From positions 50,720-114,719 of the forward strand of contig CAWKKR010000009.1 in assembly GCA_963850305.1 (NCBI GenBank): a DNA stretch of 64,000 nt, read 5' to 3'. Below the pieces are notes generated by a model. That model made no database searches. It was not told where the DNA came from and saw only the letters and a list, made by a program, of their open reading frames with translations. Positions 2,653 through 59,603 of this stretch are shown piece by piece (position 1 is the first letter of the stretch; each line of letters opens with the position of its first letter). The position numbers were made by a program, and so were the translations under genes. The DNA comes from an uncultured delta proteobacterium. Its GTDB lineage: Bacteria; Myxococcota_A; Polyangia; Polyangiales; Polyangiaceae.

Positions 2653-4398
<1,746 letters not shown>

Positions 4399-15208: not shown

Positions 15209-15282
15209 GTCCCCATCGTCTAGCTGGACCAGGACACGGCCCTTTCAAGGCTGCGACACGGGTTCGAATCCCGTTGGGGACG
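15209..15282 (+). tRNA. tRNA-Glu(TTC)
   Basis: Acceptor stem GTCCCCA/TGGGGAC, anticodon arm CGGCC-CTTTCAA-GGCTG, T-loop GGTTCGAATCC; followed by CTA rather than CCA. Confidence 0.96.
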
Positions 15283-16901
15283 CTACATTAGGAAACTGGC
15301 CTTCGATGGCCAGGAACCTGCCGATGACGGCTTCACCCTCGACCTGAAAACGAGGGCCGTCGGGTGTCTGGATGCCGTGAACGTGAGCTTGTCGGGGAAC
15401 AGTTCGCGGAGGGCTTCACGAGCGTCGTCGGGGTTTCTCTCGAACACGCCTGCCAGGTCGGAGAGACGTTTCTTCGCCTCCGCCTCCATCCGGCGAAGCT
15501 CCAGGTTGATCGCCTCGGGGGCGGCCTGGGCGGCTCGTAGGCGGCTCTCAATTTGGCTGAGCCGCTCTTGTCGTTCACCGATGGCGCGGACGAGAGGCTC
15601 GGGCTTGTCGTTTGCCGTCGCGATGGCGGTCACGAGTCGATCGATCTCGATGCGAAGCTCACGGGCTTCGTCTGCGAGCTTCGGAAGGTCGGTGGTCGTA
15701 GCAACATGACGCTCTTCGAGGCGTCGTCGGGCTTCTTGCAGAGCCAGGACGATGAACTCCTCGGTGAGCACCTTCGCCTTCAGCACCTCGATCAGCGTGG
15801 CGTTTACGTTCGCCACTGGCCTACGCAGCGTGCTCCCGCAGACCTCTGGCCCGCGCTCTTTGTGCCACGAACAGGTGTAGACCTTGATGATCGTCTTGCC
15901 CGCCTTGCTGTTCGTGACCTTGATGGGCCCGCCGCACTGGCCGCACCGCCCGAGCTGGGAGAGCATGTACTTGGGCTTTCGGCCGGAGGGCTTGCGCTTG
16001 CCGGGCTCTTCCTCCGCCCGCGGGATGCGGGCGTGCGCCGCTTGCCAGAGTGCATCGGAGACGATTCGCAGCTCGGGTAGCTCGACCTGGATCCAGTCGC
16101 ACTTCGGTCGCGGGATCCGGACCTTCGTTCCGCCCTTGTAGGTCTTCTGCGTCCGATTCCAAATGGGGCGACCGAGGTACCGCTCGTTTCGGAGCATCGA
16201 GCGGACCGCCGACTGCGACCACGAACCCGTGCCCCTCTTTCCGGCTTGGGGTGAGGGGATACGCCTCGCATTCAATGCTTTCGCGATCGTACGAAGGCCG
16301 TCTCCGCCCGCGTAGCGCTCGAAGATCTCTCGCACAATATCCGCTTGGACCTCGTTGACTACGTCCTCGGCGTGGCTGCGACGGTCACCTTCACGAACCT
16401 CTTTGCTGCCGTACCCAAAGCACCAACCGCCGACCTTCCGTCCCTTGCGCGCCTTTGCGAGCAGATGCTCGAAGGTCCGCTGCGAGATCTTCTCCCGTTC
16501 GAGTTCGCTCGCGAAGTTCTTCGCAGCCATCAGGAACTTGTCGGTCGCGTTGTCGAGAACGACTTCACGGCCCTCGAAGTAGAACCAGAGCTGCACGCCC
16601 GCATCGAGCAGGTTAGACGATGATCAAACCCGTTCGGGATCATGTCCCCACCAACGCGCGTTTCGTCTCGCGTGACGACCACGTCGAATTCGTGGGCTTC
16701 GGCCGCATTGATGAGCTTCAAAAGGGCCGGACGCTTCTTGAATTCGGCTCGGCTGACGGCGTCTTCGAGGTAAATATGGGACTCGGAGAAGAGTTTCCAT
16801 CCTCGCGCTTCAACGAATCGCTTGGCCTCGCCGAGTTGCACGTCGAGCGAGGACATTTGGTGCTCATCCGTGCTCCGGCGAGCGTAGATTGCAGCCCTCA
16901 T
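15245..16901 (-). CDS. Large serine recombinase (apparent frameshifts near 16620 and 15375)
   Basis: N-terminal AAIYARRSTD catalytic motif; recombinase domain; Zn ribbon (CGQCG...YTC..C); coiled coil; alternative frame ends VASPTGFEPVSQP* inside the tRNA antisense strand. Confidence 0.88.
15264..15284 (+). repeat. att core, copy 1 (tRNA-Glu 3' end), TCGAATCCCGTTGGGGACGCT
   Basis: Exact 21-bp direct repeat with 22521-22541. Confidence 0.93.
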
Positions 16902-33155: not shown

Positions 33156-33425
33156 TTGGACCGATCCTTTCACGAGGGCAGAAAGCCCGCCCTGATACCG
33201 GTCTGACGGTGCGTCACGGGCACGGATTCACCGATGCGGCCCAGCGCGCTTGCATCGCGACCGCTGGCGTCCCGATCCGAAAGCCGTCGGGGGGCGGCTG
33301 GCTCCGGGATCCGGGCACTCATAGTTAGCTCGTCGAGCCCGAGCCCAGAAGACGGCCTGCTTGTGCCCGAACAAAAATCGCGTACAGTAGTGAATGTCCG
33401 GCGCGAGCGCTCCGTCGTACTGATT

Positions 33426-33555
33426 GCCCGCGGAGAGGCTTCGTATCTCCGATGAAAAGCCCGCGGAGAGGCTTCATATCTCCGACAAAGCCCGCGGAGA
33501 GGCTTCGTATCTCCGACAAAGCCCGCGGAGAGGCTTCGTATCTCCGACAAAGCCC
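33426..33555. repeat. 4 x 31-bp tandem repeat GCCCGCGGAGAGGCTTCGTATCTCCGACAAA
   Basis: Four head-to-tail copies, each containing a CGGAGA/TCTCCG inverted pair. Confidence 0.93.
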
Positions 33556-33624
33556 CCGGTCGGCTTCGGTCGAACGGGGGCGCACTTTTGCGTGCTGGAG
33601 TTGCGAGTTGCGATCGTCGTGAGC

Positions 33625-33747
33625 TCGAGCTCGGCGAGCGTCGTCCGCGTGCGCGGTCGCCCCGGACCGCGGCGTTCCGAGCCGTCATACTTCGCAGCCA
33701 CCAGGTTCCGGTACCAGCCGAGCAGAGTGTCCGGGCGAGCAAGTGCT
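33625..33747 (-). pseudogene. Short internal fragment of an rve/integrase-core transposase
   Basis: Translates LARPDTLLGWYRNLVAAKYDGSERRGPGRPRT; abuts unit copy A. Confidence 0.65.
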
Positions 33748-33836
33748 CCAAACCCCGTCCCCGTCGTCGACCCGCCGCTCCCCGCCGTCCACGACGGCCC
33801 CGGGCCGTCAAGGACGGGGATTTTCGGTACATTTTG
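33748..33836 (+). repeat. 105-bp unit copy A (5'-truncated)
   Basis: AACCCCGTCC...AAGGACGGGGATTTTCGGTACATTTTG. Confidence 0.93.
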
Positions 33837-35298
33837 AGCGCGCGTGCAGAGTCGCGAGGAGGAGCATCTGGGAGCCGCGCGCGGGTTCGGTCGATCTCGG
33901 GAGGGGTCGCTTCAAGAACGCGATGCAGAGCCGCGGGTGTGCGCGCAGTGTCGCCTCCAGATCCACGAGCGACCCGGGCAGGGTCTTGCTGGGCGGCAGA
34001 GGACGTTGGACGAGCATCGGCCGGACGTCGTTCGACAGCAGGCTGCAGACTCTGGCAGGCGGCACTCGCGCGGCGAGAGCCTGCCAGCGTGGCGCGGAGA
34101 ATTCTCTGGGTAGTCGCGCCGACGGGAAGTGGGCATTCGCTGCCGACGCGAAGCGGCACAGGCAGACCAGGCCGAGAATGACGATGGGCCCCGTGAACGC
34201 GAGTTGCCATTTCGTCCGGGCGCGGCCGACGACGCGGCTGGCGAGGACGGCTCCCAACGCCCACGTCGGCACCCAGAAGCGGACTTCGGTCAAAGGATTG
34301 AAGTCGCTGAACGTCGCTGCAACGACCATCGTCGCGACGTAACCCGCGAAGGTGAGGGCTATCAGGCGCACGTAGTTCGAGCGCCAGATGCGCATGCCGA
34401 CGCACAGCACGCAGAAGCACAGGACCGGCACGGCCACCTCGAGGCGTTCGGTCCATGACGGTCGTCCGGGTAAGAGCCCGGCATCTGCGAGCCACTGCAC
34501 GGAACCCGCGGCCGCGCGCACGATGTTCTCGTGAAATCCGTTGTAGTGCACGCTCCGATCCCCCATGAGAGATCCGGAGACGAGTCGATTTCTGACGAGA
34601 AGCGGTACGGTGACGGCTGCGAGCGCCGCAAACAGCGGCACGAACTGCGTCAGGCGGGTCCAGAGGGAGCCGCGGCGCGCCGCGAGGAGCCCGAGGACGA
34701 CTCCCAGAATGACGCCCTGGCCGGCGTAGCGGAACAGAAACGTCACGCCGAGCGCGACGCCACAGGCCACCTGAAGCCGGGGTCGTCTCTCTCGGACGAG
34801 TGCCGTTGCTAGCAGGACCGAGCAGAGCGTCGCGGCGGCAAAGGGCAAGTCGCTCAGCACGGCGTCGACCGTGACGAGCGTGCTCGGCTGAAGCGCGACG
34901 CAGAGCGTGAACAACGTGACGACGGGCCACGCCTTTGCCCCAGCAACGCGGCACCCGAGGCCGAAGAGAGCGGCAACGAAGACGACATACGCGATGCCGA
35001 GGACCACTGGCGCCCCTGATAGCGGACTTGCCCCGAACCATACAGGCACGGCCAGGCACGCCGAGAAGGCTGGGGGCCACGGCGTGATGGGGTCGAAGGC
35101 ACTCGACCCGACGAGCGCGCCGCGGGAGGTGACATACCCCTCGAAAGCTGCCAGGTATCGAGCGCCATCGATGTACGTCGCGCTGTCCCACGAAGCGCTT
35201 CCGCCCGGCCCCCACAGCCACGCGACCCAGATCGCGACGGCGATCGTTCCTACACCCGCCGCCGCAGCCCTCATTCGGTTCGATGATGCACGAGTCAC
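33837..35298 (-). pseudogene. Multi-TM GT-C-type (ArnT/PMT-like) glycosyltransferase, 3' end cut by unit A
   Basis: WDSATY..A, PWPP, LSDLPF, FRYAG motifs; ORF runs into the repeat and ends KCTENPRP. Confidence 0.65.
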
Positions 35299-35302
35299 GG
35301 GA

Positions 35303-35737
35303 TCAAAGAGGTGCGGATTCCTGGCCTCCCAAGAGATGCGTCATCGCAGAAAGTAGCGGATCGAGCGCGGTTGGCTTGGTCAAAACGGCGTCGAAAGGGC
35401 CGCGTTCGCGCTCGCCGAGCGGGCGACCCGTGAGCGCGATGAGCCCAGTCGCGTGCGTGTCTTCTTGGGCCCGGAGCGCATGAGCGACGTCGATGCCGGA
35501 CATGCCCGGTAGCGTCACGTCGAGGAGAATGAGCCGAGGATGTCGTGAGCGCGCGAGCCGCATCGCCTCTTCTCCGGTCTCCGCCGTCATCACGTCCCAG
35601 CCCCCGAGGCGGAGAAGCTCCGACAGGGCTTCGCGAGAATCCGCGTCGTCGTCCACGATCAGTACGCCGACGCCTCCGCCTGCGTTCTTCTCGAAGCGCG
35701 ACTCATCCACGACGCGCTCCTGGCCCATGCCCGACAC
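35303..35737 (-). CDS. Single-domain response regulator (receiver)
   Basis: LIVDDD, ILLDVTLPGMSG, IALTG, LTKP. Confidence 0.9.
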   Translation of the reverse strand: MSGMGQERVVDESRFEKNAGGGVGVLIVDDDADSREALSELLRLGGWDVMTAETGEEAMRLARSRHPRLILLDVTLPGMSGIDVAHALRAQEDTHATGLIALTGRPLGERERGPFDAVLTKPTALDPLLSAMTHLLGGQESAPL

Positions 35738-36124
35738 CGGTACCTGCGTTCAAGGGACGCTCCACGAAACACTCATTAGGAGATGATGACGGCAGGTCAA
35801 CTCGCACCTCATGGTCATGAGCAGCGTGCATCGTGCGCGAGGACGCAGGAATTGCGTCCAGCTTGGGCGCTCTTGGACATGATGCGATCATTCGATCACG
35901 GGCCTGGTCAAGCAACCGGGCCGCGCACCGGGAACTGCGCGCACCCTCGTGACGCCGTGGAGACATCAAAGATCTTCCTACGACCATCGTGGTGGTCACG
36001 TGCGAGGCTCCATTTTCGGTGAGGCACTTTGCCACAAATACTGGAGCCGTGCTCACGCACGTCCCGAGGGCCTGAACTTTTCCGATGTAGATGCGTCTGG
36101 ATCGCCTATCATTGCCCTTCGACG

Positions 36125-36229
36125 CCGGAGACCAGGGCGACCAACCCCGTCCTCGTCGTCGACCCGCCGCTCCCCGCCGTCCCACGACGGCCCCGGGCCG
36201 TCAAGGACGGGGATTTTCGGTACATTTTG
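36125..36229 (+). repeat. 105-bp unit copy B
   Basis: CCGGAGACCAGGGCGACC...GGTACATTTTG. Confidence 0.95.
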
Positions 36230-36230
36230 A

Positions 36231-36431
<201 letters not shown>

Positions 36432-36766
36432 GGGATGAGGACGGCCGAGCCGCCTCGGCTGGCACAGGCCCGGACGAGCGCGTCCAGTGCGGCCTCGGTC
36501 CGTCGAAGGAGATCGACCTGAACGGGGCGGCCGCGGTCGACCCCTGAGTAGCGCCGTTTCGGCGTCTTTCCGCTCCCAGAGCGCCGCTTTGGCGAGACCC
36601 CTGTCGCGGCATCCGGCGGCTCGGAGGTGGAGACGATCACGCGTAAGCGCGGCGTTTCGATCGCGCTCGGCGCGATCGTTTCTGGGCCCGAACGCACGAC
36701 GACGTAGCCCCCGGGTGAGCGGGAGCCACGTCGTCACGGCAAGCTGAGCGGCGGCGTGTTCGGAGG

Positions 36767-37588
36767 CTATTCCACCTCCTGGTCGGAGCGGCGGGACTTG
36801 CCGGTGATGCGGACGAGGAGGCCCTTGTGGACGAGGCGGTCGGCGATGGCGGAGGCGGCGGCGCTGTTGTGGAACAGCGTGCCCCAGTCCTTGAAAGGGA
36901 GATTGGTGGTGACGATGGTGGAGACGCGCTGGTAGCGCTTGTTGAATACCTGGTAGAGGAGGTCGGCGCCGCGGGCGTCGAAGCTCAGGTAGCCGAGCTC
37001 GTCGATCAGGAGAAGGTCGGGTGTGGACCAGGCAGCGAGGCGACGATGCAGGGTATTTCGGGCCTGCGCGGCGACGAGGTCGTTGACGAGATCGGCGGCG
37101 AGGACGAAGCGGACGCGGTGCCCGCGGAGGCAAGCGAGCTGGCCGATGGCGTTGGCGAGGTGGGTCTTGCCGACGCCGCTGGGGCCGAGGAAGACGCAGT
37201 TGGCCTTGTCGCGAATGAATTCGAGGGAAGCGGCGCGGATGACGATGTCGCGATCGATGGTCTTGGGGTAGTCGAAGTCGTAGGTGTCGACGGTGGTGAG
37301 GGGGAAGATGGCGGAGCGCTTCAGGGCGGCGCGAGCGCGGCCTTCGAGCTGCACGCGGAGCTGCTCTCTCATCAGGTGGTCGAGGAGAGCGGTGGGCGAC
37401 TCGTTGCGGGTGATGGCCTTCTGGGACGCCGCGTCGAGCTCGCCCGCGGCGTGGTCGAGGCCGAGGGTGCGGAGCACGTCCTCGAGGGACAGGGAGGTGG
37501 CGACGTCATCCGTCGCCATCGGAGGGATCGGAGTCGGGGGGGTCTCGGTCGGGGATTTCGAATGTTTCGGGGGTTTCGAAGAGGGCAT
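36767..37588 (-). CDS. istB: IS21 helper ATPase
   Basis: GPSGVGKTHLA, LLLIDELGY, TTNLPF..W, DRLVH. Confidence 0.95.
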   Translation of the reverse strand: MPSSKPPKHSKSPTETPPTPIPPMATDDVATSLSLEDVLRTLGLDHAAGELDAASQKAITRNESPTALLDHLMREQLRVQLEGRARAALKRSAIFPLTTVDTYDFDYPKTIDRDIVIRAASLEFIRDKANCVFLGPSGVGKTHLANAIGQLACLRGHRVRFVLAADLVNDLVAAQARNTLHRRLAAWSTPDLLLIDELGYLSFDARGADLLYQVFNKRYQRVSTIVTTNLPFKDWGTLFHNSAAASAIADRLVHKGLLVRITGKSRRSDQEVE

Positions 37589-39047
37589 CGTAGGTCTCCA
37601 GTGGATGGGGCTCGACGATGATCTCGTCGGCCGTGGTGTTGCCGGTGACGATGGGCTCGGGGGGCTCGCCGAGGCCGCGAGCGAAGCGGCTCTGGTCGAT
37701 GAGGGCGCGGACGTTGCGGACGCCGAAGGTGCGAGCGGCGAGCGCGCGCTTCATGCCCTCGGCGACGTCGGCCTCGCCGTAGAGCACGACGAGGCGCTGG
37801 AGCTTCTGGATCTCGCCTTCGAGATCGATGCGCCGCCGTGCGATCTCCTGGAGGTAGACGCGGGATTCCGGCGAGAGAGCGGCGAGGCGATCGCGCCGAC
37901 GTGGGGCGTGCGCCGCGGGGCGCTTTTCGAGCATCGCATCGATGTGAGCCCGGTCTTCGATAGGTTGCCGACGCCCCCAGCAGCGCGCGTGCTCGGCGAC
38001 GACGGCGCCGCCGGCGACGATGCGCACGGTGGTGTCGTCGGCGCGAAGATGAACGCTCTGCCCAACGAGGCGATGGGGAACGGAGTAGGTGTTGGTGTCG
38101 AGGTGGACGCGGGCCTCCTTCGAGACGACCATCGGCAGGACGAGGTCGGTGTCGAAGGTGTGCTCCGGCAGGGGGCGGAGACGGGGCCGCTCGAGGAGGA
38201 GGCGCTCCAGCGGGCGCTCCCGCGTGGTGCCGTGAATGCGGGCGTTGGCGGTGTGCTCGGCCCAGGCGGAGACCTGGGCGCGCAGATCGGCGAGAGACGA
38301 GAAGGTCCGGCCGTAGAAGAAGGAGTGGCGGATGTATTTGATGGCGGCCTCGACGCCGCCCTTGAACTCCGGGTAGCGAACGGGGGCTGCGACGGGCTCG
38401 AAGAGGTAGTGGCCGGCGAAGCCGAGGAACGCCGGGTTGAACTGCACGGTGGAGCCGACGTGGTGCAGGACGACGCTCTTGAGATTGTCGTAGACGATGC
38501 GCTTCGGGACGCCGCCGAAGAACGCGAGGGCGCGCTGGTGCATGCGCAGGAACGTGTCCATGCGCATGTCGAGGGAGAAGTCGACGTAGATGGCGCGCGA
38601 CCAGCGCATCACCATCGCGAACGCGGAGAGGGGGCGCTGTGTGTTACCGACACGCCAGTGCCCGAACGAGCCCCAGTCGACCTGGGCCTGCTCGCCCGGC
38701 TCGGTCTCGATGCGGAGGTAGGCTTTGCGGGCGCGCGGGGCTCGGACCTTGGCGACGTAGCGGCGGAGCTGCGCGATCCCTCCTTTGAACCCCGCGCCCT
38801 GGAGCTCCATGAAGAGGCGGACGGCGGTGAGATCCGGGTGCTCGGTGAGGCGCCGGATGATGTGCTCCCGGAATGGATCGAGCTCGGAGGGGGCCGGAGG
38901 ACGATGCTCGGTCACGCCATCCGGATCGCGGATGGCGCGACGGACGACGGAGTGATGGACGCCGAAGCGCCGGGCGGCGGTCTCGATCTTCCACCCCTCC
39001 CGGAGGACGAGCCGTCGCATCGCGGCGCGGATCTCCGGGGTGATCAT
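37506..39047 (-). CDS. istA: IS21 transposase
   Basis: ETEPGEQAQVDWG, FFGGVP..IVYDNLK, KGGVE, NTYSVP. Confidence 0.95.
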   Translation of the reverse strand: MITPEIRAAMRRLVLREGWKIETAARRFGVHHSVVRRAIRDPDGVTEHRPPAPSELDPFREHIIRRLTEHPDLTAVRLFMELQGAGFKGGIAQLRRYVAKVRAPRARKAYLRIETEPGEQAQVDWGSFGHWRVGNTQRPLSAFAMVMRWSRAIYVDFSLDMRMDTFLRMHQRALAFFGGVPKRIVYDNLKSVVLHHVGSTVQFNPAFLGFAGHYLFEPVAAPVRYPEFKGGVEAAIKYIRHSFFYGRTFSSLADLRAQVSAWAEHTANARIHGTTRERPLERLLLERPRLRPLPEHTFDTDLVLPMVVSKEARVHLDTNTYSVPHRLVGQSVHLRADDTTVRIVAGGAVVAEHARCWGRRQPIEDRAHIDAMLEKRPAAHAPRRRDRLAALSPESRVYLQEIARRRIDLEGEIQKLQRLVVLYGEADVAEGMKRALAARTFGVRNVRALIDQSRFARGLGEPPEPIVTGNTTADEIIVEPHPLETYDALFETPETFEIPDRDPPDSDPSDGDG

Positions 39048-39427
39048 CGCTGGCCCGTCGCCGCGAACGAGATGAGCTGCCGGGCGTCGGTGAAGGAGCC
39101 CATGCCTTCCAGGAACCGGTCGTGTTTGCGGCAGGGCGGGACGGCGACCCACTCGACGCGCACGGCGCGCTCCGGTGCGTCACCGAGGAGTAGGGCCCAG
39201 TGCTCGGGGCGGCGGCGCACGTCCCCGGCATCCGCATCGAGCACAGCGTGCAACGGCAGGCCGTACCAGAGGGAGAGCGCCTCGAGCAGCATCATCAGGG
39301 CTCGCCCGTCGGCGGGCTCGGGCGGCAGTCGGGCTTTCAGCGACGTGCCGGCAGAGGGCTCCGAGAGCAGGAGCCGGATCTCCGAGCCCTCGGGCTCGAT
39401 CGACAACCACAGCGGGAGGGACGACAT
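39044..39427 (-). CDS. IS21-associated hypothetical protein
   Basis: Stop overlaps the istA start; lies inside the element ends. Confidence 0.6.
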   Translation of the reverse strand: MSSLPLWLSIEPEGSEIRLLLSEPSAGTSLKARLPPEPADGRALMMLLEALSLWYGLPLHAVLDADAGDVRRRPEHWALLLGDAPERAVRVEWVAVPPCRKHDRFLEGMGSFTDARQLISFAATGQR

Positions 39428-39716
39428 CGATGTGAATCTCCAGCGCGGTCGTCGGTGCCGCGGGCGTCGTGCCCGCAGCCGTGACCGGCACCTCGACGGG
39501 TACAGGTGGGCACTCGGCCGCGGAATGTTGTGGAGTCACGCCCCGGGCGGCTTTCTTCCGGTCCCGGTATTCCTGCTGCCGATCCCGATGGTTTCCCGGG
39601 CCCCACTCCGTCTTCCGTTGCTTCTTGCTCGCCGTCCGCCACTGCGCCCGGCGCGCGACCCGTGCGCATTTCGGCGAGCAGTACCGGCATCGCCGGTCGC
39701 ACCGTCGGCAGAGCAA
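39180..39716 (-). CDS. IS21-associated Cys-rich (Zn-finger-like) ORF; boundaries uncertain
   Basis: CPICGG..LCRRCDRRCRYCSPKC followed by a basic helix. Confidence 0.55.
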   Translation of the reverse strand: MLCRRCDRRCRYCSPKCARVARRAQWRTASKKQRKTEWGPGNHRDRQQEYRDRKKAARGVTPQHSAAECPPVPVEVPVTAAGTTPAAPTTALEIHIDVVPPAVVVDRARGLGDPAPALGALCRHVAESPTAARARRRASPDDAARGALPLVRPAVARCARCGCRGRAPPPRALGPTPR

Positions 39717-40014
39717 GAAGTCGCCGCCGCAGATGGGGCAGAGGCGCTCCGCGAGCTCGTCCAGGTGGGCACGGCGACCCCCGCGAAGTGGACAGCCCAG
39801 CCTCGCCCATGCGATGCACCGCGCCGCAGCGGACGGCCTATTCCGTCCTGCCGGACGGCTCGGAGCGGGAACTCTGGGCCGTCCCCCTTTCGAGGGCGCG
39901 CCGAGCTACGCGACGCCCGTCAGGCTGGCCAAGAAACTCGAGCCCGCGCTACGAGTCGAACCCCGCGCTCGCCGTGATCGGGAACCCGCGCTTCGGCGTG
40001 ATCGTCTCCACTCA

Positions 40015-40710
40015 GTCTCTTGCCTGGACACCAGGCCCACGAGATCCCTGTCGTCATCCACGACAAGGAACGAGACCAGAAGATCGCTGGTCGGCTCGTA
40101 GTGATGCGTCTCCCGGAGGCGCAAGCCGAGAAGGCTCGCGCTCGACTCGTTCGCGAGCGAGGCACGCGCGTCTCGGACCTCGACCGAGAAGCGGCAAGCT
40201 ATGTTGTCTTGTTCACCACGGTGCCGAAGTCCCGACTCGACGCCGAGCGTTGCCTCGCGCTCTACCGCCTGCGCTGGCAAGTCGAGTTGCTCTTCAAACG
40301 ATGGAAGTCTCTGTGCGGCCTCGATCGCCTGCCGAACTACCTCGACGAGACGATACACGCCTGGCTCTACGGAAAAGTGCTTCTCGCACTTCTGATGCAG
40401 CGGATGGCGGCCTCCGCGCTTTCCCCCCGGAGCCGTCGAATTCGTCTCGACGCCGACGACCCGCCGTGGACGCACCAACCGTGGAAGCTGACCTCGCTGC
40501 TGTGGGCGGCGCTCATCCGCTCGCTGCTCCCCCTCACGCTGCATGACCTGCTCGCTCGCCTCCCCGGGATCCTCGAACGCCTCGACCACGCAGACGAGGA
40601 AGGAAACTGGCGAGCTGACACCGACCGCTCCCGTCCACGTCAGATCCACGACTTCCGCTCATGCCTGCCGGCGCGGCTCCGACGTGCGGCCTGAGGTGAT
40701 AACGGCGATG
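40015..40710 (+). mobile_element. 3' half of the IS4-family element (same element as 54070-55478)
   Basis: Near-identical to the reverse complement of 54070-54766; YRLRWQVELLFK motif; end GATAACGGCGATG. Confidence 0.93.
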
Positions 40711-40803
40711 GCGACCAACCCCGTCCTCGTCGTCGACCCGCCGCTCCCCGCCGTCCCACGACGGCCCCGGGCCGTCAAGGACGGGGATTTTCGGTACATT
40801 TTG
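40711..40803 (+). repeat. 105-bp unit copy C (5' end replaced by IS4)
   Basis: GCGACCAACCCC...GGTACATTTTG directly follows the IS4 end. Confidence 0.95.
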
Positions 40804-40894
40804 GTTGGGGTGTCCACGAAAGCGGGGGATCATCAGGGCGGTGCCGCTGGTAGCCGCCAGCACGCTGGCCGTCGAGAGGAACGGCGGGAGCTAC

Positions 40895-41425
40895 TCATCC
40901 CTTGTCACATCCTGGATCGAGCAGCGTTGCTAGGGGGGCGCAAAAAGCGCTTAACTGCGGCGCGCCGCAGGGCAGAGTCGCCGTCGCGCAAGCCATGATC
41001 TCGCTACGGTGGGCCACGTAAAAATCCAACATACCCTTGCAACAGCTCGTGATCTGCACGTCCGGCTCGTTCTCCTCGCACGCAGCACTCGAAGGAGCCC
41101 CAATGCATGCATTCACCTGTCCACAGAACACATCGTACAAGGACTGTGCGAGTCCGCTCATTTCGTCGAAGGTGACCGCCACCGAAGGTGAGCCAGGTCC
41201 CGCACTCAACGTCCGGCCGTCAATCCCCGCTTGGGTCGCGCAAAGGGTGCCGGCACCGACGCAAGATCCGCCTGGCGTACATTTTGCCGAACTTCCATAG
41301 ACCGCACAGTCCGTGTCCTTCGCGCAGGGGTACTCATTCGTCTTGCTCCCAGAGCACGACGCAATGACCGCAAGTACGCCTACGGCAATACTTGCGCGCA
41401 CGGCGCTTATCAAAAAAACGCGCAA
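40895..41425 (-). CDS. Cys-rich lipoprotein
   Basis: VLAVIASC lipobox; many Cys. Confidence 0.7.
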   Translation of the reverse strand: MRVFLISAVRASIAVGVLAVIASCSGSKTNEYPCAKDTDCAVYGSSAKCTPGGSCVGAGTLCATQAGIDGRTLSAGPGSPSVAVTFDEMSGLAQSLYDVFCGQVNACIGAPSSAACEENEPDVQITSCCKGMLDFYVAHRSEIMACATATLPCGAPQLSAFCAPLATLLDPGCDKG

Positions 41426-42354
41426 CGTTCCCCCTGTTTGCAGTTTTGGAAACTCATTAGCAATGACCCATCAGCGAGCGGCTGCGCCGTGGCCGCCGAC
41501 GACGAGAGGGCCGGAGCTGGTTGCGTGGTCGCCTGCACCGACCCATCAGGCACCGCCTGCGTGCTCGACGCGAACACCGGCCTCACCATGCCTGGATGAC
41601 CATACGCGGCCTTCATGGCGGCTGGCACAAGCCGACTGATCTTTGCTCCGCTACCAGAAGAAAGCGACAGACTTACCCCGTGAACAAGCATGCTGCCTGT
41701 TGTGAGGCACTTGCCACTCGATGGCAAGCACGCCGATATCGGGTTGCCCGCAGCATCCTCAAAGATATGGCTCGAAGAACTTGCATCGAAATTTACCGGT
41801 TGCGAGAATAGCAAAGTTACTTCGTCCTGTTTGGACGGATCATTGGACTGACTTACGCTTTCAATATACACGATGTCTCCAGTGTAGACACTTAACGAAA
41901 ATCCAGCACATCCGAGAATTGCAACGCTGTCGGGCACCGAAGAAGCCACTACGGAGTACCAGGCCCCCTGCAGCAGCGGCGCTACAGAAGCGATATCAAT
42001 TTGCGTGGCACCGTTGTTACCGAACGCACCACTAACCTGCACCGGCACCGCCTTTCCTGAACTATCAGAGACCGATACTGCAGTCGCCACTCGGGCCGCA
42101 ACATCGCTCGCCGACATCAATCCGTTCGCCAACAACTGGACATGAAGGTTTACGCCGAGCCCGCTCTGTACCAAATACGTCGGCTGATATAAATATACCA
42201 TGTATGGAAGAATCGCCGACGCCGCTTGACTGCTCGGTGATGCCGCGAGAATTGCTGGCTGTCCAGACCGCGGCGACGATTGCCCGGTGCCGCACGCCGG
42301 GCCGCCAGAAATAGCTAAACAAGCACAGACGGCCAATTTCCAAAACTTTCGCAT
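41410..42354 (-). CDS. Hypothetical lipoprotein (lower GC)
   Basis: MRKFWKLAVCACLAISGGPAC signal peptide. Confidence 0.7.
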   Translation of the reverse strand: MRKFWKLAVCACLAISGGPACGTGQSSPRSGQPAILAASPSSQAASAILPYMVYLYQPTYLVQSGLGVNLHVQLLANGLMSASDVAARVATAVSVSDSSGKAVPVQVSGAFGNNGATQIDIASVAPLLQGAWYSVVASSVPDSVAILGCAGFSLSVYTGDIVYIESVSQSNDPSKQDEVTLLFSQPVNFDASSSSHIFEDAAGNPISACLPSSGKCLTTGSMLVHGVSLSLSSGSGAKISRLVPAAMKAAYGHPGMVRPVFASSTQAVPDGSVQATTQPAPALSSSAATAQPLADGSLLMSFQNCKQGERCAFF

Positions 42355-42374
42355 GTTCGTCCCCTTTGTGTCAT

Positions 42375-43889
42375 TCACGGTGTGACAGTAACCCCGTTTG
42401 CATAAAACTGGGCGCTTGTACGCAACGAATCCCATTGATCAGGCAGCACCCCAGCAGGCGGCCGTGAATACGGCACTAAACCAGCCGCAGCAAGGAGACT
42501 CCAATTGTCCTGTCCGGCGGCACAGCGACCGGCCGGCGGCACTCCGCCCGCAACCGGATCCAAGCAATGATCAGTCGCAGTACAAAGGGTATGCGAATCG
42601 TATGGGCCGTCCATGATGGTATGGCCGCACCATGGTTCATTGCCGTTAATGTATTCATCACCAAACGACAGCATGCTATGCCCAAACTCATGAGCAATGT
42701 AGAAGGAAATGCTATCCACATTACTGTATTGCGTGCAACCCCTGGCAGGATCAGGAATGTAAGTTCGGTAACCCGGAATGCTCTTGAAGCCACAACCGTC
42801 CACGGGCTTTAATACGAAATCACAGCCGGCCACCGGACCACAGTACGGATAAAGACTAGGATCCCCGCTACTGGAGCACGTACCGGTTGGAACGATTTTA
42901 TGAGTCCAAGTCATCGGCCAAATACCGCCGTTAGTATATTGAGCGACGCGCCCGGAGAGCTCCTTAAGGAACTGAACATAAGGAGCCCAGTAGGGCGCTG
43001 TTGTACTTAATGGTATCTCACCGCAGATTGTATAAGCGGTCTTGGTGGTAGTCGGGTACGCCGACACGTGAAGCACATAGTGTGCTGCGCCTACGTAAGA
43101 ATGTATCCCAATATAATATGTCCCGTTCCCTTGCGACGGCAGGTTTATGAATGCTCCTCCGCCAGCAATAGTCCCAGTAGAATTCCCAGAAAAGTCAATG
43201 TAGTCGTAAGAAGTCTGGTCCGGGAACCGGTTGGTCTTGCTGACGTAAAGATCTAGATCGGGAGACGTGGTCGGGGATGCAAGAACCTCAACGGAAATCG
43301 CGACTCTTTCGTTTGGAGAATGCGAAACATTGAAGTAGTGAGTGTCCCCGGTACCTAACAGGACACCCTCGATTCTATAATTGTTACCTATGTTCCAGCT
43401 AACCGGTGGGGGAATGGTAGCCGAGCACACCAGTGCCAGTGAGTTAACTGTAGGCGTTGAGGCTTCGTTGCCTGAAGCGTCAGTCTTCCATAAAAACTGG
43501 ATGTTGTTAGGATATTGGGTAGTTGAATCTCCAATAAGAAGCGCGCCGGCAAAGCCGTTTGGGTTGTTTCCCGTGTACATGTAGCCCTCGTAGGCACTGG
43601 CTATCGACAAAAAGTCGCTACCATTTAGCCAGACGTTGTTCAGGCTGGGGACAACTATCCCAACGGTTGGCGAGAAGAACACAGACCAATATGAGTACTC
43701 ATTGTTGTTATAAAAACCAGGAGCTTGTGAATAGCGCTCGAACTCGGCGGTGCCGGTGTTTACTGGCAGGACCGTCGGGCTGTAAACGTTCGTCGAGCAG
43801 CTCTGATAGCTAAACGCCGCCCTCGCGGTAGTTAGCGGCAAGAACGTTGCCGTACACATCACAGCAGCTACGCACGTGGAGTGACGCAT
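42375..43889 (-). CDS. Secreted Zn-metallopeptidase-like protein with PPC-like domain (lower GC)
   Basis: Signal peptide; DLDLYV...GTYYIGIHSY; IAHEFGHSMLSFGDEY; SD GAGGAG. Confidence 0.8.
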   Translation of the reverse strand: MRHSTCVAAVMCTATFLPLTTARAAFSYQSCSTNVYSPTVLPVNTGTAEFERYSQAPGFYNNNEYSYWSVFFSPTVGIVVPSLNNVWLNGSDFLSIASAYEGYMYTGNNPNGFAGALLIGDSTTQYPNNIQFLWKTDASGNEASTPTVNSLALVCSATIPPPVSWNIGNNYRIEGVLLGTGDTHYFNVSHSPNERVAISVEVLASPTTSPDLDLYVSKTNRFPDQTSYDYIDFSGNSTGTIAGGGAFINLPSQGNGTYYIGIHSYVGAAHYVLHVSAYPTTTKTAYTICGEIPLSTTAPYWAPYVQFLKELSGRVAQYTNGGIWPMTWTHKIVPTGTCSSSGDPSLYPYCGPVAGCDFVLKPVDGCGFKSIPGYRTYIPDPARGCTQYSNVDSISFYIAHEFGHSMLSFGDEYINGNEPWCGHTIMDGPYDSHTLCTATDHCLDPVAGGVPPAGRCAAGQDNWSLLAAAGLVPYSRPPAGVLPDQWDSLRTSAQFYANGVTVTP

Positions 43890-43953
43890 ACCATGGTTCT
43901 CCTCATTTAGTGGCTATACCCCATTGTCGAAGAAACATTATCGCGTCGGCACG

Positions 43954-43987
43954 AGTGATGTCAACGGAGAAGTGATGTCAACGGAGA
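43954..43987. repeat. 2 x 17-bp tandem repeat AGTGATGTCAACGGAGA
   Basis: Exact adjacent duplication upstream of the metallopeptidase gene. Confidence 0.9.
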
Positions 43988-44155
43988 AATGACCATGGGG
44001 CCGGTCACAACCAATGCCCCTGCAAACGTTCTCGGTCTGCGCGTACCATTCGCGGGCCTATGAGTAACAAATCCGGTACTTGTGCTGTGTCAGGATGCCC
44101 GGAAGCGGCACGTAGGGTGGCCAGAGATCCGGTACTTTCCGGGTAACCTCTTGCC

Positions 44156-44624
44156 CAAAATGTACCGGAAATCCCCGTCCCTGACGGCCCGGGGCCGTCC
44201 GTGGACGGGTGGGGATCGCCGTCGGAGCGCGAGCACCGACGTGATCCGCGGGCCGATTTGCTGATGGGATGAGCCGAATGGAGGGGTCCCCGACGTCGAA
44301 GGGTTGCGACACACCAAGGACGAAAGGAAGCCCGATGGACATCGTGACCCGAACTGCGTTTCTCGCCAAGCCCGAAGTGAAGGAAGTCGTGTGCGATCTG
44401 CGACGACTGGTTCGAAGTGCGCTTCCGCACGGCAATTTTGCAGAACGTGAGGAGGCAGCGCTCACGATCTTCGACGAGGCAATGCGTTCGGTGCTCGAAG
44501 AGGAGCTTCAACACGTCGCCGGAGACCAGGGCGACCAACCCCGTCCTCGTCGTCGACCCGCCGCTCCCCCGCCGTCCCACGACGGCCCCGGGCCGTCAAG
44601 GACGGGGATTTTCGGTACATTTTG
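44156..44624 (+). mobile_element. Internally deleted IS: 44-bp IRL, transposase N-terminus (44335-44520) and unit copy D (44519-44624) as right end
   Basis: IRL CAAAATGTACCGGAAATCCCCGTCCCTGACGGCCCGGGGCCGTC matches the reverse complement of the unit 3' end at 42/44 positions; peptide FAEREEAAL..EEELQ tentatively resembles ISKra4-like N-termini. Confidence 0.8.
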
Positions 44625-45885
44625 GAACGAGCAGATGCTCGGGGCGTTGGGTGATCTCGGTCCCGCTCTTGGCATGACTGGAGAGCTCGGCGTAGGAGGA
44701 CGCATCGCCCACCAGAATGCCGCCGAGGACCTTCTTCCGGTCGTCGCTGAGGACGAGCTTCTTGTAGATGCCGGTGGCGCCGTCGAAGAGACTGACGACT
44801 TTCGAGCCCGCGGTCACGCCGAACGCGTCTCCGAAGCTCGCGACGTCCACGCCGAGGAGCTTGAGCTTCGTGCTCATGTCGAACCCGGTGAACGCCCCGG
44901 CGTCGCTCGCGAGCTGGGCCGCGACGACCTCGGCCATGCGGTATCCGGGGGCCACCAGACCATACGTCCGGTTGGCGAGCGCCGCGCATTCACCGATGGC
45001 GAACACGTCGGGGTCCGTGGTCCGGCAACTCTCGTCGATCGCGATGCCGCCGCGGTCGCCGAGCGCGAGTCCGGAATGGCGCGCGAGCTCGTCGCGCGCA
45101 CGGATCCCCGCCGAGAATACGACGATGTCCGCCGGGAGCTCGCCCTCGTCCTCGAACCGAACGGCGGAGACTCGCCCCTCGTCGTCCGCCAGGATCGATT
45201 GGGTCTTCGCGCTCGTGTGAACGACGATGCCGAGCGCCTCGATGCGGCTCCGGAGCACCGCGGCGCCCACGTCGTCCACCTGAAGCGGCATCAACCGAGG
45301 TGCGAACTCGATGACGTGCGTTAGGAGTCCGAGAGAATGAAGCGCCTTGGCCGCCTCCAGGCCGAGCAATCCGCCGCCGATGACGACGCCGCTCTTCGCG
45401 GTTGCAGAGGCGTCTCGAATCGCCGCGAGATCGTCGAGAGTGCGGTAAACGAAGCACCCGCGGAGATCCTTGCCGGCGATCGACGGCACGAAGGGATACG
45501 ACCCCGTCGCGAGCACGAGCTTGTCATAGTGAAGCTCACGGCCGCGATTCGTCCGGAGCGTGCGGCGAGCGCAATCGAGCTCCGACGCGGATTCGCCGAG
45601 TAGTACCTCGACGCCCCATTCGGCGTATTGCGTCGCGGAGGCGAGCGTCAGCTCGTCCTCGTGACGTCCGTCGAACCAGGCGGATAGGTTCACCCAATCG
45701 TACGCGCGGCGCGGCTCTTCCGCGAGCACCGTGACGTCGAAGGTGCCGGTCAGACCGCGCTCGGCGAGTGCTTCGACGAGGCGATGCCCGACCATCCCGT
45801 GACCGACGACGACGAGCGATGGCCTCGAGCCGAGGGGCCCTGCATGCTCGCCGGAGCCCTGGACCGGCAACACTTCCGTTTCCAT
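44625..45885 (-). pseudogene. nirB: NAD(P)H nitrite reductase large subunit, N-terminal ~420 aa only
   Basis: VVGHGMVG, LATGSYPFVP, VIGGGLLGLEAA, FAIGECA, STKLKLLGVDVASFGD; cut by unit D. Confidence 0.9.
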
Positions 45886-45990
45886 TTCAGCCTCCAGCGC
45901 TCGGGACGCCCGTCGCGAGCTCATCAATCCAATGTTCACCGTGCTGGCTCATGAGGTCCTCGAGGGCTCTGGCAGACTCGAAAGGCGGGC

Positions 45991-46261
45991 TCAGAACGAA
46001 AACGGAATGTCGAGCTGGACGATCTTGTAGCTGTTCTTCTTCATCGGATCGTCGAGCGGGAGCGTCAGCGAGATGCCAGGGTGCAGCCACTTTCCCGGTG
46101 CGACCTCGAAGTGCATCCGCGGACCGAAGGCGACCGTCGTGTTGTCGCGCAGCGTGCCCGTCTTGTCCGCGGCTACCGCCTTCGGCGTGGAGAGCCAGCG
46201 CTGGTGCCGGAGCTCCGCTCCGAGCGACAGCATCGGGATGATGAAATATCCGACGTGAACC
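45991..46261 (-). pseudogene. C-terminal fragment of a probable outer-membrane beta-barrel protein
   Basis: Amphipathic strands ending DIPFSF; 5' part cut by unit E. Confidence 0.55.
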
Positions 46262-46366
46262 CCGGAGACCAGGGCGACCAACCCCGTCCTCGTCGTCGAC
46301 CCGCCGCTCCCCGCCGTCCCACGACGGCCCCGGGCCGTCAAGGACGGGGATTTTCGGTACATTTTG
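46262..46366 (+). repeat. 105-bp unit copy E
   Basis: Identical to copy B. Confidence 0.95.
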
Positions 46367-54069: not shown

Positions 54070-55478
54070 CATCGCCGTTATCACCTCAGGCCGCACGTCG
54101 GAGCCGCGCCGGCAGGCATGAGCGGAAGTCGTGGATCTGACGTGGACGGGAGCGGTCGGTGTCAGCTCGCCAGTTTCCTTCCTCGTCTGCGTGGTCGAGG
54201 CGTTCGAGGATCCCGGGGAGGCGAGCGAGCAGGTCATGCAGCGTGAGGGGGAGCAGCGAGCGGATGAGCGCCGCCCACAGCAGCGAGGTCAGCTTCCACG
54301 GTTGGTGCGTCCACGGCGGGTCGTCGGCGTCGAGACGAATTCGACGGCTCCGGGGGGGAAAGCGCGGAGGCCGCCATCCGCTGCATCAGAAGTGCGAGAA
54401 GCACTTTTCCGTAGAGCCAGGCGTGTATCGTCTCGTCGAGGTAGTTCGGCAGGCGATCGAGGCCGCACAGAGACTTCCATCGTTTGAAGAGCAACTCGAC
54501 TTGCCAGCGCAGGCGGTAGAGCGCGAGGCAACGCTCGGCGTCGAGTCGGGACTTCGGCACCGTGGTGAACAAGACAACATAGCTTGCCGCTTCTCGGTCG
54601 AGGTCCGAGACGCGCGTGCCTCGCTCGCGAACGAGTCGAGCGCGAGCCTTCTCGGCTTGCGCCTCCGGGAGACGCATCACTACGAGCCGACCAGCGATCT
54701 TCTGGTCTCGTTCCTTGTCGTGGATGACGACAGGGATCTCGTGGGCCTGGTGTCCAGGCAAGAGACTGAGCCACGGCATCAACTCGAACGACTCGTCTTC
54801 GAAGAGGATCGGCAACGATCCGCGGTTGACGCGGACGAGCACGTCAGCGCCGCGCTCGACGACGTAGCCGATGCCGGGAGCGTTGCAGTAACCGCGATCG
54901 GCCACCGCGAGCTGCCCCTGCGTCCACGAAAACCGCTTGAAGGTCTCGCCGACGCTGATGCCTTCGACGCGAGCATCGAGCACGTCGAGATCCGCGATCC
55001 GCATCTGTGTGTGGATACGAGCATCGGTGGTCTCGGCGCCCGGGCCGCAAACCGCGGTGGCGTCCACGGCCACCACGTCGTAGCCCGACCATCGCTCGGG
55101 TGCGGCCTCGGAAGTGTCCACCATCTCGCCCACCAGTCGCCGCAAGTAGGGCACCGCCCGGAGGAGCTTCTTGTGAAGCCGAACGTGGCTCACCTCGGGG
55201 CCGCCGGACTCGGCCATCAGCGCCACCGTTTGGCGAAGGGGCAGGTCTGCTCCGACGTGCAAGAGCACCAGTCGAAGCAGGTCATCGGCGGTGCGGATCT
55301 TCGCGTTGCCGTACTGCAAATTCAGCTGCTTCAGCTCGCTCGCGAGCTCTGCGTAGTTCTCCGGCAGGAAGCCGCGGATCGTGTCCCAGTCGGTCGTCAC
55401 GTTGAGGCGGGAGTTGGCCATGCCCTCGCTGGTCGCACGAGGCGGGACTTATGGAAAAGAAAACTGCTAACAGCTATG
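54070..55478 (-). mobile_element. IS4-family element with 11-bp TSD GGTCCAGGGGG; transposase 54086-55421 has one homopolymer frameshift
   Basis: Ends CATAGCTGTTA / CATCGCCGTTA; TSD at 54059-54069 and 55479-55489; VDAT, ADRGY, YRLRWQVE. Confidence 0.95.
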
Positions 55479-56731: not shown

Positions 56732-57385
56732 TTCGCCCACCGGCATACACGCCCGTTGCCCTACCTCTTCTCGGATCGCGAGATCGGGCAGCTGCTCGCG
56801 GCGACCGCCCGGCTCCGGCCCCGCGGCTCCCTCCGCCCCCTGACGTACTTCACCATCTTCGGGCTTCTGGCCGCCGCTGGATTGCGCGTCTCGGAGGCAC
56901 TCCACCTGGTCCTGGATGACATCACCGCGGACGGACTACTTGTCCGCCAGACGAAGTTCCGCAAGAGCCGCCTGGTGCCGCTCCACGAGACGACGTCGGC
57001 TGCTCTGGATGCGTACCTCGCGCAACGACGCCCCGTGGCACGCCGTGAAGCGCACGTCTTCATCTCCACGACCGGTCGGGCCCTCACGTATCCGATGATC
57101 AACGGGACGTTCCATTTCCTGCTCCGGTCCGTGGAGCTCCAGGCGCCCGCGGGCGGGCTGGCGCGCGCGCCCAGGATTCACGACCTACGCCACCGATTCG
57201 CGATGCGCGCGCTGGAGTGCGCAGCCGGCGACCGTCACCGCATGGCGCAGCATGTGCTGGCGTTGTCTACCTATCTCGGCCACGCCCACGTGGCCGATAC
57301 CTACTGGTACTTGCACGCGACCCCACACTTGATGCGCCACATCGCGGATGCCTGCGAGGCAGGCAGCGCCGGAGCCACGCCATGA
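56732..57385 (+). pseudogene. RIT-type tyrosine recombinase (second gene), 5' end truncated by IS3
   Basis: GLRVSEAL, TKFRKSRLVPLH, HDLRHRFA, LSTYLGH..TYWYL. Confidence 0.88.
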
Positions 57386-58374
57386 CGGCCCTCGCCCCCC
57401 ACATCACCGCCTTTCTCCGCCAACGCCTGCCAGTGGAGCGGGCGGCCAGTCCGCATACGTGCGACACGTACGCGTATGCGTTCCGCCTCCTGTTCGCGTT
57501 CGCGAGCCGGATGCTGCGCGTGCCCCCATCGGGTCTGCAACTCGAACACCTCGACGCGCAGCTGGTGCTCGCGTTCCTCGCAGATCTGCAGACCTCCCGG
57601 AACAACAGCCCCCGCACCCGCAACGCCAGGCTCACCGCGATCAAGTCGTTCATGCACTTCGTGGAACATCGCGTTCCCGGCTCGCTCGAACAGATCCGGC
57701 GTGTCCTGGCGATTCCAAACCAGAAGACTGACCTGCGGCTGGTCGAGCACCTCGACGCGGCGCAGTGCCAAGCCATCCTCGATGCGCCCGATCCGACGAC
57801 CCGGGCCGGAATCCGAGACCGCACGATGCTTCATGTCTGCGTCACAGCCGGATTGCGCGTGTCCGAGTTGGTCGGGCTGCGGCTCGGCGATGTGACGTTC
57901 ACCGCGCGCTACGTGGACCTGCGCGTCCGGGGCAAGGGCCGCAAGGAACGAATCCTCACTCTCTGGAAGTCCGTCGCCGATTCCGTGCGGGCCTGGTTGG
58001 CCGTGAGGGGCGAGGCACCGGTCCCCGAGCTCTTCCTCAACGCACGCGGCCGGGAGATGACACGCGCCGGCTTCGAATACCTCCTACACAAGCACGCAGT
58101 CGCCGCCGCTCGCACGCGGTGTCCCGCGCTGCGGGGCAAGCGGATCTCCCCGCACGTGCTCCGACACACCTGCGCGCTCAACGTCTTGCAGGCGACGGGC
58201 GACATTCGCCAAGTCGCCCTCTGGCTCGGGCACGAGAGCATCCAAACCACCGAGGACTACCTCCGCGTGGACGTGACACAGCGGATCAGCATTCTCGCCG
58301 CCGTGACGCCGCCCCAGCTGCGACCGGGTAAGTTCCGCCCGCCGGACGCGCTGATCGCGTCACTCACCGGCTAG
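57382..58374 (+). CDS. RIT-type tyrosine recombinase (third gene)
   Basis: TRNARLTAIKSF, GLRVSEL, GKGRKER, PHVLRHT, WLGHESIQTT..Y; ATGA coupling. Confidence 0.92.
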   Translation: MTALAPHITAFLRQRLPVERAASPHTCDTYAYAFRLLFAFASRMLRVPPSGLQLEHLDAQLVLAFLADLQTSRNNSPRTRNARLTAIKSFMHFVEHRVPGSLEQIRRVLAIPNQKTDLRLVEHLDAAQCQAILDAPDPTTRAGIRDRTMLHVCVTAGLRVSELVGLRLGDVTFTARYVDLRVRGKGRKERILTLWKSVADSVRAWLAVRGEAPVPELFLNARGREMTRAGFEYLLHKHAVAAARTRCPALRGKRISPHVLRHTCALNVLQATGDIRQVALWLGHESIQTTEDYLRVDVTQRISILAAVTPPQLRPGKFRPPDALIASLTG

Positions 58375-58460: not shown

Positions 58461-58765
58461 CCCCTCATCTTGCACGAAAAGGCCACGACGATCTGGCGGT
58501 GACACGCGCGACATTCGGCGCGTCCGAATCCGTGCGCCAGGATCCCGCAGCGCAGGTAGGCGCGTAGCTCGCGCTCGACGTACGTCGGGAGCGGGCGATC
58601 GTGCTTCTCGCGGGATTCAGCGAGGAACGTCTCGAGGTGCTCGGCGACCAGCCGGTAGAGCAACGTCTCTTCGGGTCGGTGGCGCTCGTAGCCACGTTGC
58701 CGGCGGTCGACGGAAGACCCCGCGAGGTCGGGCACGACCGGTCTCGACAGCGAGGACCGGGCCAT
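58461..58765 (-). pseudogene. IS91-family transposase N-terminal Zn-binding fragment, interrupted by the RIT element
   Basis: YLRCGILAHGF..CRAC...VAFSCKMRG, cut before the expected CPSC. Confidence 0.85.
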
Positions 58766-59603
58766 GAACGAAGGTCAGCGATTCCCCCGTGTCTCGGGTG
58801 CCCTGACGGTGGCCAACGCCGGGGTCGCGATGGCGAGCCGCCACGACGACCTCGGAGAAAGTCGCGTGCGAGACGGGAAACGGCGGCGGCGAACTGAACG
58901 AGGGAGGGATCGCGCTCGGCGAGGGCGTCGTCGACGGAGAGAGCTTCCCGCGATGCTCGTCTCGTGCCGCCCGTGCTCGACGACGGGGCGTCAGCGACGT
59001 GACAACCGGCCAGGCAGATGGACGCGGCGCGTCGAAAAGCTAGCGTCACGGAATTCCTCCATTGCCTGGGCTCGCGTAGCTGCTGCGACGGCCGCCGAGT
59101 TCATAATGTCCCATTACCGGACAACGTCACCGCGGCGGGCTCGGGCGCCGCACACATTCCCCTACACGCCCTAATCTTAGTGCGATAAGGTTGGACGGTC
59201 AAGGGGCGATCAAGGGCAATCTAGAGCCTTCAAACGACGCTGTTCGACATCGAAACGCGAGGTAGCAAGCGAGGCTTAAACGTGGCTCGATGCGTGGCTC
59301 AAGCAAGGTAACAAGCGTGGCTTTTTGTGGCCTTTTACCACGATTTTTCCATGGATCCGGGCTTGGCTGCATTCCATCCTCGGAATGGACACTTTAAGAA
59401 CCCTTATCGAGGGCATCCGGGAGCGTACGGCAGGCCCACGACCCCCGCGCTCACGCGAGCCCGGCCTCGGCGCGCTGTCGGCGGATGTCTTTTCCGAGGC
59501 GGCGTCGCCCGCGCCGCGTCGTCGAGCGCGACGGGCGGCACGACAGCATCGCGGAAGCCGTCTCCGACGACGAGCTCGCCGGGCGCGATCCCACCCTCGC
59601 CGG

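Follow-up and report, generated by a model that had tools for sequence, protein, structure and literature searches.

Miniature origin ends of an IS91/ISCR-type rolling-circle element in an array of gene fragments from a Polyangiaceae genome

How do pieces of unrelated genes come to stand side by side in a bacterial genome, separated by copies of one short sequence? The question is raised by a stretch of 64,000 nucleotides (the window) from an uncultured delta proteobacterium of the Polyangiaceae (GenBank assembly GCA_963850305.1, contig CAWKKR010000009.1, positions 50,720 to 114,719 of the forward strand). Its source genome (G000) comprises 6.26 Mb in 11 contigs with 66% GC; genomes, contigs and loci are given G, C and L numbers, respectively. 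In the window, a unit of 102 nt with the first bases GAG is present in five direct copies on the + strand, all of which have the identical last base (BLAST E values for the repeat, 1e-36 to 1e-49). The unit is oriIS, the origin end of a rolling-circle element of IS91/ISCR type that has an HUH (Y2_Tnp) transposase, and one of the pieces of DNA between the units is a recent copy of a host locus that is still intact. The idea of a preliminary description of this DNA, that a non-autonomous unit derived from a transposon end captures host DNA, holds. The units are as follows:

33735-33836, + strand: unit 1, a complete variant mini-oriIS
36128-36229, + strand: unit 2, a 102-nt mini-oriIS
40711-40803, + strand: unit 3, inner end intact, origin end removed by the end of an IS4 element
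44156-44206, - strand: sixth unit, inverted and partial (inner end only), broken by an ISKra4-like element
44522-44624, + strand: unit 4, 103 nt, with an extra C within a homopolymer
46265-46366, + strand: unit 5, a complete 102-nt mini-oriIS

The five same-strand copies with a common end base had been described correctly, as had the lack of target duplications and of any left flank continuing into a right flank. The end coordinates given for the copies stand, while the starts of units 1, 2, 4 and 5 are corrected here (33735, 36128, 44522 and 46265) and the inverted sixth copy had been missed. The CCGGAG with which the copies had been said to start includes three bases of flanking DNA (the source loci carry CCG), and unit 1, which had been taken as truncated and starting at 33748, is a complete variant. 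Unit 1 and its left flank are also found at C5:8385, there with another right flank; four tandem repeats of 31–33 bp (33423-33559), immediately to the left of unit 1, are present in the C5 duplicate too. Unit 2 is the sole non-autonomous copy in G000 that shares the next 10 bases with the transposase-linked copies and, judging by these retained bases, may be the parent of identical sister units.

To which family does the unit belong? A Y2_Tnp search of G000 revealed three intact genes (on C2, C6 and C7), each with a related unit 82 nt behind its stop codon. These transposase-linked copies align inward from the first base of the unit, and their outer flanks are unrelated. All three genes match Pfam PF04986 and PF14319 above cut-off; the transposase, with its Zn_Tnp_IS91 domain and HUH motif, shares 34% identity with that of ISPps1, and the origin motif of the unit is similar to the ISPps1 end. 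The best NCBIfam match is to ISCR clade Ia (NF052416), at 334 bits versus a cut-off of 925, and the match to NCBIfam IS91 (NF033538) is 83 bits versus a cut-off of 125; the transposase belongs to a distant clade outside both cut-offs. When the opposite end (terIS) was sought upstream of the gene, the similarity of the three copies faded over 300–800 nt with no common end. The units have no terminal inverted repeats and no target-site duplication, with at most one purine in common at the joints. IS91-family elements are described, in the available text of PMC13181058, as having oriIS downstream of the gene, no target duplication, and a short target motif adjoining the origin.

The earlier comparison with Pack-MULEs and ISEcp1 does not fit this family. 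A MULE-type element with terminal inverted repeats or an ISEcp1-type DDE element was rejected on account of the linkage of the unit to Y2_Tnp genes, and a MITE (miniature inverted-repeat transposable element) or Pack-MULE-like element on account of the lack of terminal inverted repeats, paired flanks and target duplications. attC sites are recognised by their GTT/AAC boxes; the unit ends are not such boxes, folding is non-significant and the adjacent enzyme is a Y2_Tnp, and an integron cassette array was likewise rejected. The window itself has a remnant of a transposase gene, the polarity of which relative to the units is as in the intact elements:

58461-59360, - strand: 5′ fragment of an IS91-type transposase gene and the DNA upstream of it, truncated by a RIT-like cluster of tyrosine recombinase genes
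56756-58371: RIT-like tyrosine recombinase genes in tandem, which adjoin and truncate the transposase fragment

Has host DNA been captured between the units? The clearest case is that between units 4 and 5:

44625..46264 (1640 bp), - strand: the 5′ half of nirB and the 3′ end of its upstream gene

This piece is 99.8% identical to C8:1694854-1696495, with three substitutions (two non-synonymous), and both of its ends coincide with unit ends. The source on C8, the existence of which had been proposed as a check on capture, is an intact locus encoding a full NirB of 871 amino acids, with no unit nearby. This spacer was thus copied recently from a host locus that is itself intact, a result that deletion by itself cannot produce. 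Other units in G000 adjoin genes cut mid-frame, and one adjoins a fragment (90%) which, from a motif, we take to be glnS-like. The starts of two contigs (C2:1-3252 and C5:6-3259) are 99.4% identical, and a unit origin at position 3253 cuts C2 only; these are either another source-and-copy pair or strain variants.

What determines where the units end? There are about 30 copies in G000, in several subfamilies, and in 26 of the 29 curated copies the inner end is TG followed by a purine, the other three being degenerate. The transposase-linked copies continue past this TG as A-n6-CCAA, like the box in the origin itself, so that the unit is bounded by the origin nick and, about 100 nt further in, by a second site that resembles the origin. 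Among related elements with enough downstream DNA, this inner motif lies 35–118 nt behind the stop codon in 22 of 26 (0.3% in shuffled sequences). At the outer end, YCG precedes 11 of 19 intact G000 origins (background 7.6%, p 2e-8), a target motif looser than CTTG/GTTC, and relatives show only a purine. Counting distinct junctions that were located by motif patterns, which leaves divergent copies uncounted, a purine follows the inner end in 30/30 (G122), 17/17 (G366) and 35/36 (G342) cases, and precedes the origin in 28/30 (G122) and 45/47 (G342). Three times, an A follows the inner end at a position where the source reads G; thus, the purine can be contributed by the element. A box-like signal after the origin-side source junctions was sought by eye and was not consistently present. 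At C8:1533495-1533558, two inner halves of units are joined head to head as a palindrome.

The flanks of the units are not those of simple insertions. Where an origin junction has a second copy free of the unit and the right flank is known, the flanks were never paired (0/14 in G122 and G342, where three more lack an inner end, and 0/6 in G000; 0/20 in total), though simple insertion would make paired flanks common. Simple MITE-like insertion was therefore rejected, and the genome-wide search and flank table proposed in the preliminary description did not yield ordinary MITEs flanked by target duplications. In one G122 cross-pair, the left flank of one unit and the right flank of another, distant unit abut in a unit-free repeat copy, which shows that plain insertion of a mini-unit can occur. 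In a set of 68 complete units, right flanks are shared only among transposase-linked copies; since they do not recur among the miniature units, every inner junction is a separate event. G122 also has a head-to-tail dimer of units, in which the inner TG is joined directly to an origin, as would be expected of a mini-circle or concatemer.

Is this arrangement peculiar to one genome? A related transposase is encoded in 156 of 401 genomes of the order (G000 included). The unit of G000 was not found in 40 relatives (five short matches are probably due to chance); every lineage has its own unit. For this reason, nine relatives, chosen for close transposases and mostly for few contigs, were each queried with their own origin end, and stand-alone copies stopping at the inner site were found in all nine. 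The numbers of own-end matches, which include transposase-linked and partial copies, were 41 (G122), 42 (G342), 27 (G366), 10 (G127), 10 (G355), 6 (G073), 3 (G145), 2 (G372) and 2 (G244). In eight of the nine, stand-alone ends lie on the origin side and on the strand of a transposase-linked copy (in G127 they are on another contig); similarly, contig C2 of G000 has three miniature units and then the full element. Neighbours within 15 kb were direct in 72 cases versus inverted in 27, in regions of five relatives, regions which were picked for clusters and come from kin that are not independent. That the arrays keep to one strand solely through replication-strand bias was rejected, as the clusters in G122 switch strand repeatedly along one 7-Mb contig.

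The spacers in relatives are 0.3–8 kb long and include a kdp operon cut in kdpD, a C-terminal piece of HMG-CoA reductase, a type I restriction system, regulators and many unknown open reading frames (ORFs). The counterparts of the kdp and HMG-CoA reductase pieces elsewhere in their own genomes are merely 64–88% identical, which points to foreign donors. Three modules in G122 have DNA in common at 99–100% identity that starts and ends at differing bases. A strict DNA pattern gave no loci among viral contigs and one in the species collection: a stand-alone unit with both ends as in G000, at L030:2630-2732, in a Thermoleophilia metagenome-assembled genome (of another phylum, misbinning of the contig aside). 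No unit was present at seven metagenome loci that encode close relatives of the transposase. Several units on C3 of G122 are split by an element of about 2.4 kb with a tyrosine integrase and a second Y2 transposase, inserted in a dif-like site with constant flanks (e.g. L172:11777-14190, L173:6090-8420, L173:11390-13820 and L174:8336-10955). Downstream of the transposase in many relatives (L032, L033, L040, L044, L054, L056 and L057), dif-like sites of the 11-6-11 form are present between the outer origin and the inner site; none was evident in the G000 unit.

New and demonstrated, then, are a fixed, conserved inner cut, found again in lineages whose unit sequences are unrelated, the polarity with which the arrays are laid out, and one recent capture of which the source is intact. 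How might these be brought together? Capture driven by the transposase, taken as a whole, is probably the right reading of the sequences. Rolling-circle plasmids stop at a second origin. An HUH transposase supplied in trans could initiate at the origin and in many instances terminate at the inner site, giving a 102-nt mini-origin, the two ends of which would then be joined largely independently, at separate nicks. The 5′ end of the origin would join a strand ending in a purine (in G000 mostly in YCG), and the inner TG end a strand starting with a purine, often elsewhere or on a different molecule. If this happened twice in direct orientation, a piece of host or foreign DNA, such as that of nirB, would be enclosed, and repeated events would stack modules on the origin side of the transposase within an integrative island, with which they could travel. 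The same reactions in cis could delete or truncate neighbours, such as the IS481-like and ISKra4-like pieces. The copying route is the least certain step: it could be one step in which the unit never enters the source, or insertion followed by read-through with loss of the donor. One-step copying fits the missing donors best; also compatible is insertion and read-through in an island that moves from cell to cell, the disrupted donors having been purged.

A more specific form of this reading is put forward tentatively, as a possibility: the IS91/ISCR-like clade of this order may have a built-in second origin that programmes the release of mini-origins of about 100–180 nt, copying arbitrary host DNA in one step with the source left untouched and the modules stacked on the origin side. 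If true, this would be an integron-like capture array driven by an HUH enzyme, a bacterial counterpart of capture by Helitrons, and would explain ISCR-linked genes that lie beyond oriIS. How IS91/ISCR elements acquire genes is still argued, and one-ended transposition accounts for cargo at the terminator side but does not account for cargo at the origin side. The system described here offers a minimal substrate of 102 nt, an inner cut that is defined, and rules for the junctions drawn from dozens of events in nature; together with a recent capture whose source is intact, this makes origin-side capture testable in a simple plasmid assay.

What else lies between the units, and in which surroundings? 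The island and the remaining contents of the array are:

15209..15283, + strand: tRNA-Glu, left border of the island holding the array
33837..36127 (2291 bp): spacer 1, a putative glycosyltransferase running into unit 1, and a receiver gene
36230..36626, + strand: start-less poly-Asp coding tail
36627..40011, - strand: IS21-family element with IstA/IstB and terminal inverted repeats, a secondary insertion
40011..40710, + strand: fragment of an IS4-family element, the full copy of which (54070-55421) it matches at 99.9% identity; the end of the fragment replaced the first bases of unit 3
40804..44155, - strand: low-GC block (50–58%) with three ORFs, flanked on one side by the inner end of unit 3 and on the other by that of the inverted copy
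44207..44521, + strand: an ISKra4-like left end, which matches the only full copy (C8:1185989) at 100% identity and is cut by the origin of unit 4

The tRNA gene is followed by serine and tyrosine recombinase genes, and the island has many insertion sequence (IS) elements. As to the spacers, the nirB piece, the receiver gene and the low-GC block had been recognised previously, and the IS21 element, the IS4 fragment and the ISKra4-like end had not. The glycosyltransferase, previously described as cut at its 3′ end, owes its label to a weak match under cut-off (NF047440, E 2e-5), and its being cut is deduced only from the frame entering unit 1. The receiver region (35338-36127) has 76% identity to C8:299718-298932, and the match stops at the origin junction of unit 2. 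The unique part of the poly-Asp tail (36230..36626) has no second copy in the G000 genome. Small proteins with very acidic tails are encoded after unit 2 (36230-36431) and near transposase-linked copies (C6:15343-15585 and C2:18304-18492); as a matter of speculation, they could be DNA mimics. The ORFs of the low-GC block (40898-43889) encode secreted-looking proteins of 176, 341 and 504 amino acids without a Pfam or NCBIfam match, and the block (40804..44155) has no second copy or source in the G000 genome. The full ISKra4-like copy at C8:1185989 is flanked by an 8-bp target repeat. The ISKra4-like piece in the window begins at the element's own end, and was rejected as captured host DNA in favour of an insertion that was later truncated.

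A number of observations weigh against transposase-driven capture or against a tidy archive of cassettes. Only one of the four window spacers is a clean capture with a source, and two of the four consist mostly of later IS insertions, spacer 2 being filled mostly by the whole IS21 element and the IS4 fragment. Modules of unit plus cargo never recur among 68 complete units. To speak of a cassette-like archive, as had been done, was thus an overstatement for this window. The three intact transposase copies carry a different unit subfamily (77–83% identity to unit 2), and a transposase of the window's own, sister subfamily is not in the assembly. The orientation of neighbouring units is unbiased in G000 (8 direct, 6 inverted), and the bias is non-significant in G342 (28:18) and G384 (5:2). 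The pattern for the inner motif was fitted by eye on the same sequences that were used for counting. The units fold no better than shuffled sequences (z +0.7 to -1.3, non-significant in 5/5 strands), and for this reason no hairpin is claimed. Finally, ISCR transposition itself is experimentally unproven, according to the available text of PMC13393415 and PMC9376610.

What other processes could have built the array? Mini-origins might simply insert in a permissive island, where adjacent deletion and recombination would shuffle their flanks, the gene pieces having arrived otherwise and been trimmed at unit ends. The origin ends of units 1 and 4 do truncate resident IS elements (that of unit 1 cuts an IS481/IS3-like transposase fragment at 33626-33734); the common left flank and differing right flanks of unit 1 and C5:8385, the abutting flanks of the G122 cross-pair and the lack of recurrent modules also speak for such shuffling, and most IS801 fragments were concluded to arise by reorganisation, in the available text of PMC3189936. 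However, for the nirB piece a stretch of another contig must have been duplicated with both limits falling precisely on unit ends, no simple insertion was seen among the testable units, and the arrays keep to one side and to the strand of the transposase in eight of nine relatives. Deletion and recombination, named as the alternative in the preliminary description, probably contribute; deletion alone cannot give the nirB copy, and the two processes as the whole explanation of the array are unlikely.

A tyrosine recombinase (host XerCD or an island integrase) making the inner junction, or integrating circles of unit plus cargo, is very improbable. Several relatives do have a dif-like 11-6-11 site inside the unit, the integrase-plus-Y2 elements of G122 sit in a dif-like site, and the GIsul2 integrase is reported to move CR2-sul2 in an integrase-dependent, rcr2-independent manner (PMC9376610, available text). 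Against this, the inner junction and the sources have at most one purine in common, with no overlap of 6–8 bp, and the dif-like site, which the G000 unit does not evidently have, lies 30–60 nt off the junction. Misassembly at the 102-bp repeat, joining unrelated pieces of contigs, is scarcely credible: homopolymer differences among the copies hint at sequencing error, but the source contig runs uninterrupted and without a unit through the cut points, leaving no repeat to mis-join through, the nirB copy has its three substitutions, the junctions follow sequence rules, and the layout recurs in independent assemblies.

How does transposase-driven capture compare with known systems? Like the present elements, Helitrons use an HUH rolling-circle enzyme, include non-autonomous copies, capture fragments of host genes and make no target duplication; unlike them, they are eukaryotic, encode RepHel proteins and hold the fragments inside one element rather than between repeated origins. 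Integron cassette arrays also have the enzyme gene at one end and direct sites separating the cargo, whereas here there is no IntI, there are no GTT/AAC attC ends, and cargo is cut mid-gene and lies in either orientation. The pseudo-compound transposons and translocatable units of IS26/IS6 form similar overlapping arrays of element, cargo and element, mostly direct and with unpaired flanks, but, in the available text of PMC7986276, they differ in having a DDE enzyme, terminal inverted repeats, 8-bp target repeats and a full-length IS at each seam. Closer to home, an 11-kb circle linked to IS91 has been reported (PMC5737581, available text). Among the 60 rows listed for the best plasmid matches to ISPps1 (of 62 records), none stopped at a comparable inner site, and the literature searched, with most subscription papers outside its coverage, contained no description of either a conserved inner site or arrays on the origin side.

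For ISCR28, a sandwich of two origins has been proposed, in which a remnant with an extra oriIS, a resistance gene and a full ISCR28 follow one another (Yuan et al. 2024, as related in PMC12772301). As here, two direct oriIS ends enclose the cargo, which is placed to the origin side of the transposase; ISCR28 offers one remnant and one gene, in contrast to the many fixed-length miniatures, the defined inner cut and the mostly fragmentary genes of the present arrays. For IS801, the accessible text of PMC3189936 describes miniatures of the origin end (right end) of 229, 360 and 679 nt, with adjacent gene fragments mobilised; these end at a target-like tetranucleotide with no other consensus and have few genomic copies. 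Together with one-ended transposition of IS91, IS801 and IS1294, these miniatures resemble the present units in being an origin-end fragment with a preferred internal stop, and the three elements also have no terminal inverted repeats, no target duplication, mobilised adjacent gene fragments and a transposase acting in trans (PMC3189936 and PMC13181058, in the parts available). The reported 26% of events there were single insertions, whereas here the flanks are never paired. Unlike the ends described for IS801, moreover, the inner site here is conserved and origin-like, the miniatures number dozens per genome, and the copies stack with their cargo on the origin side.

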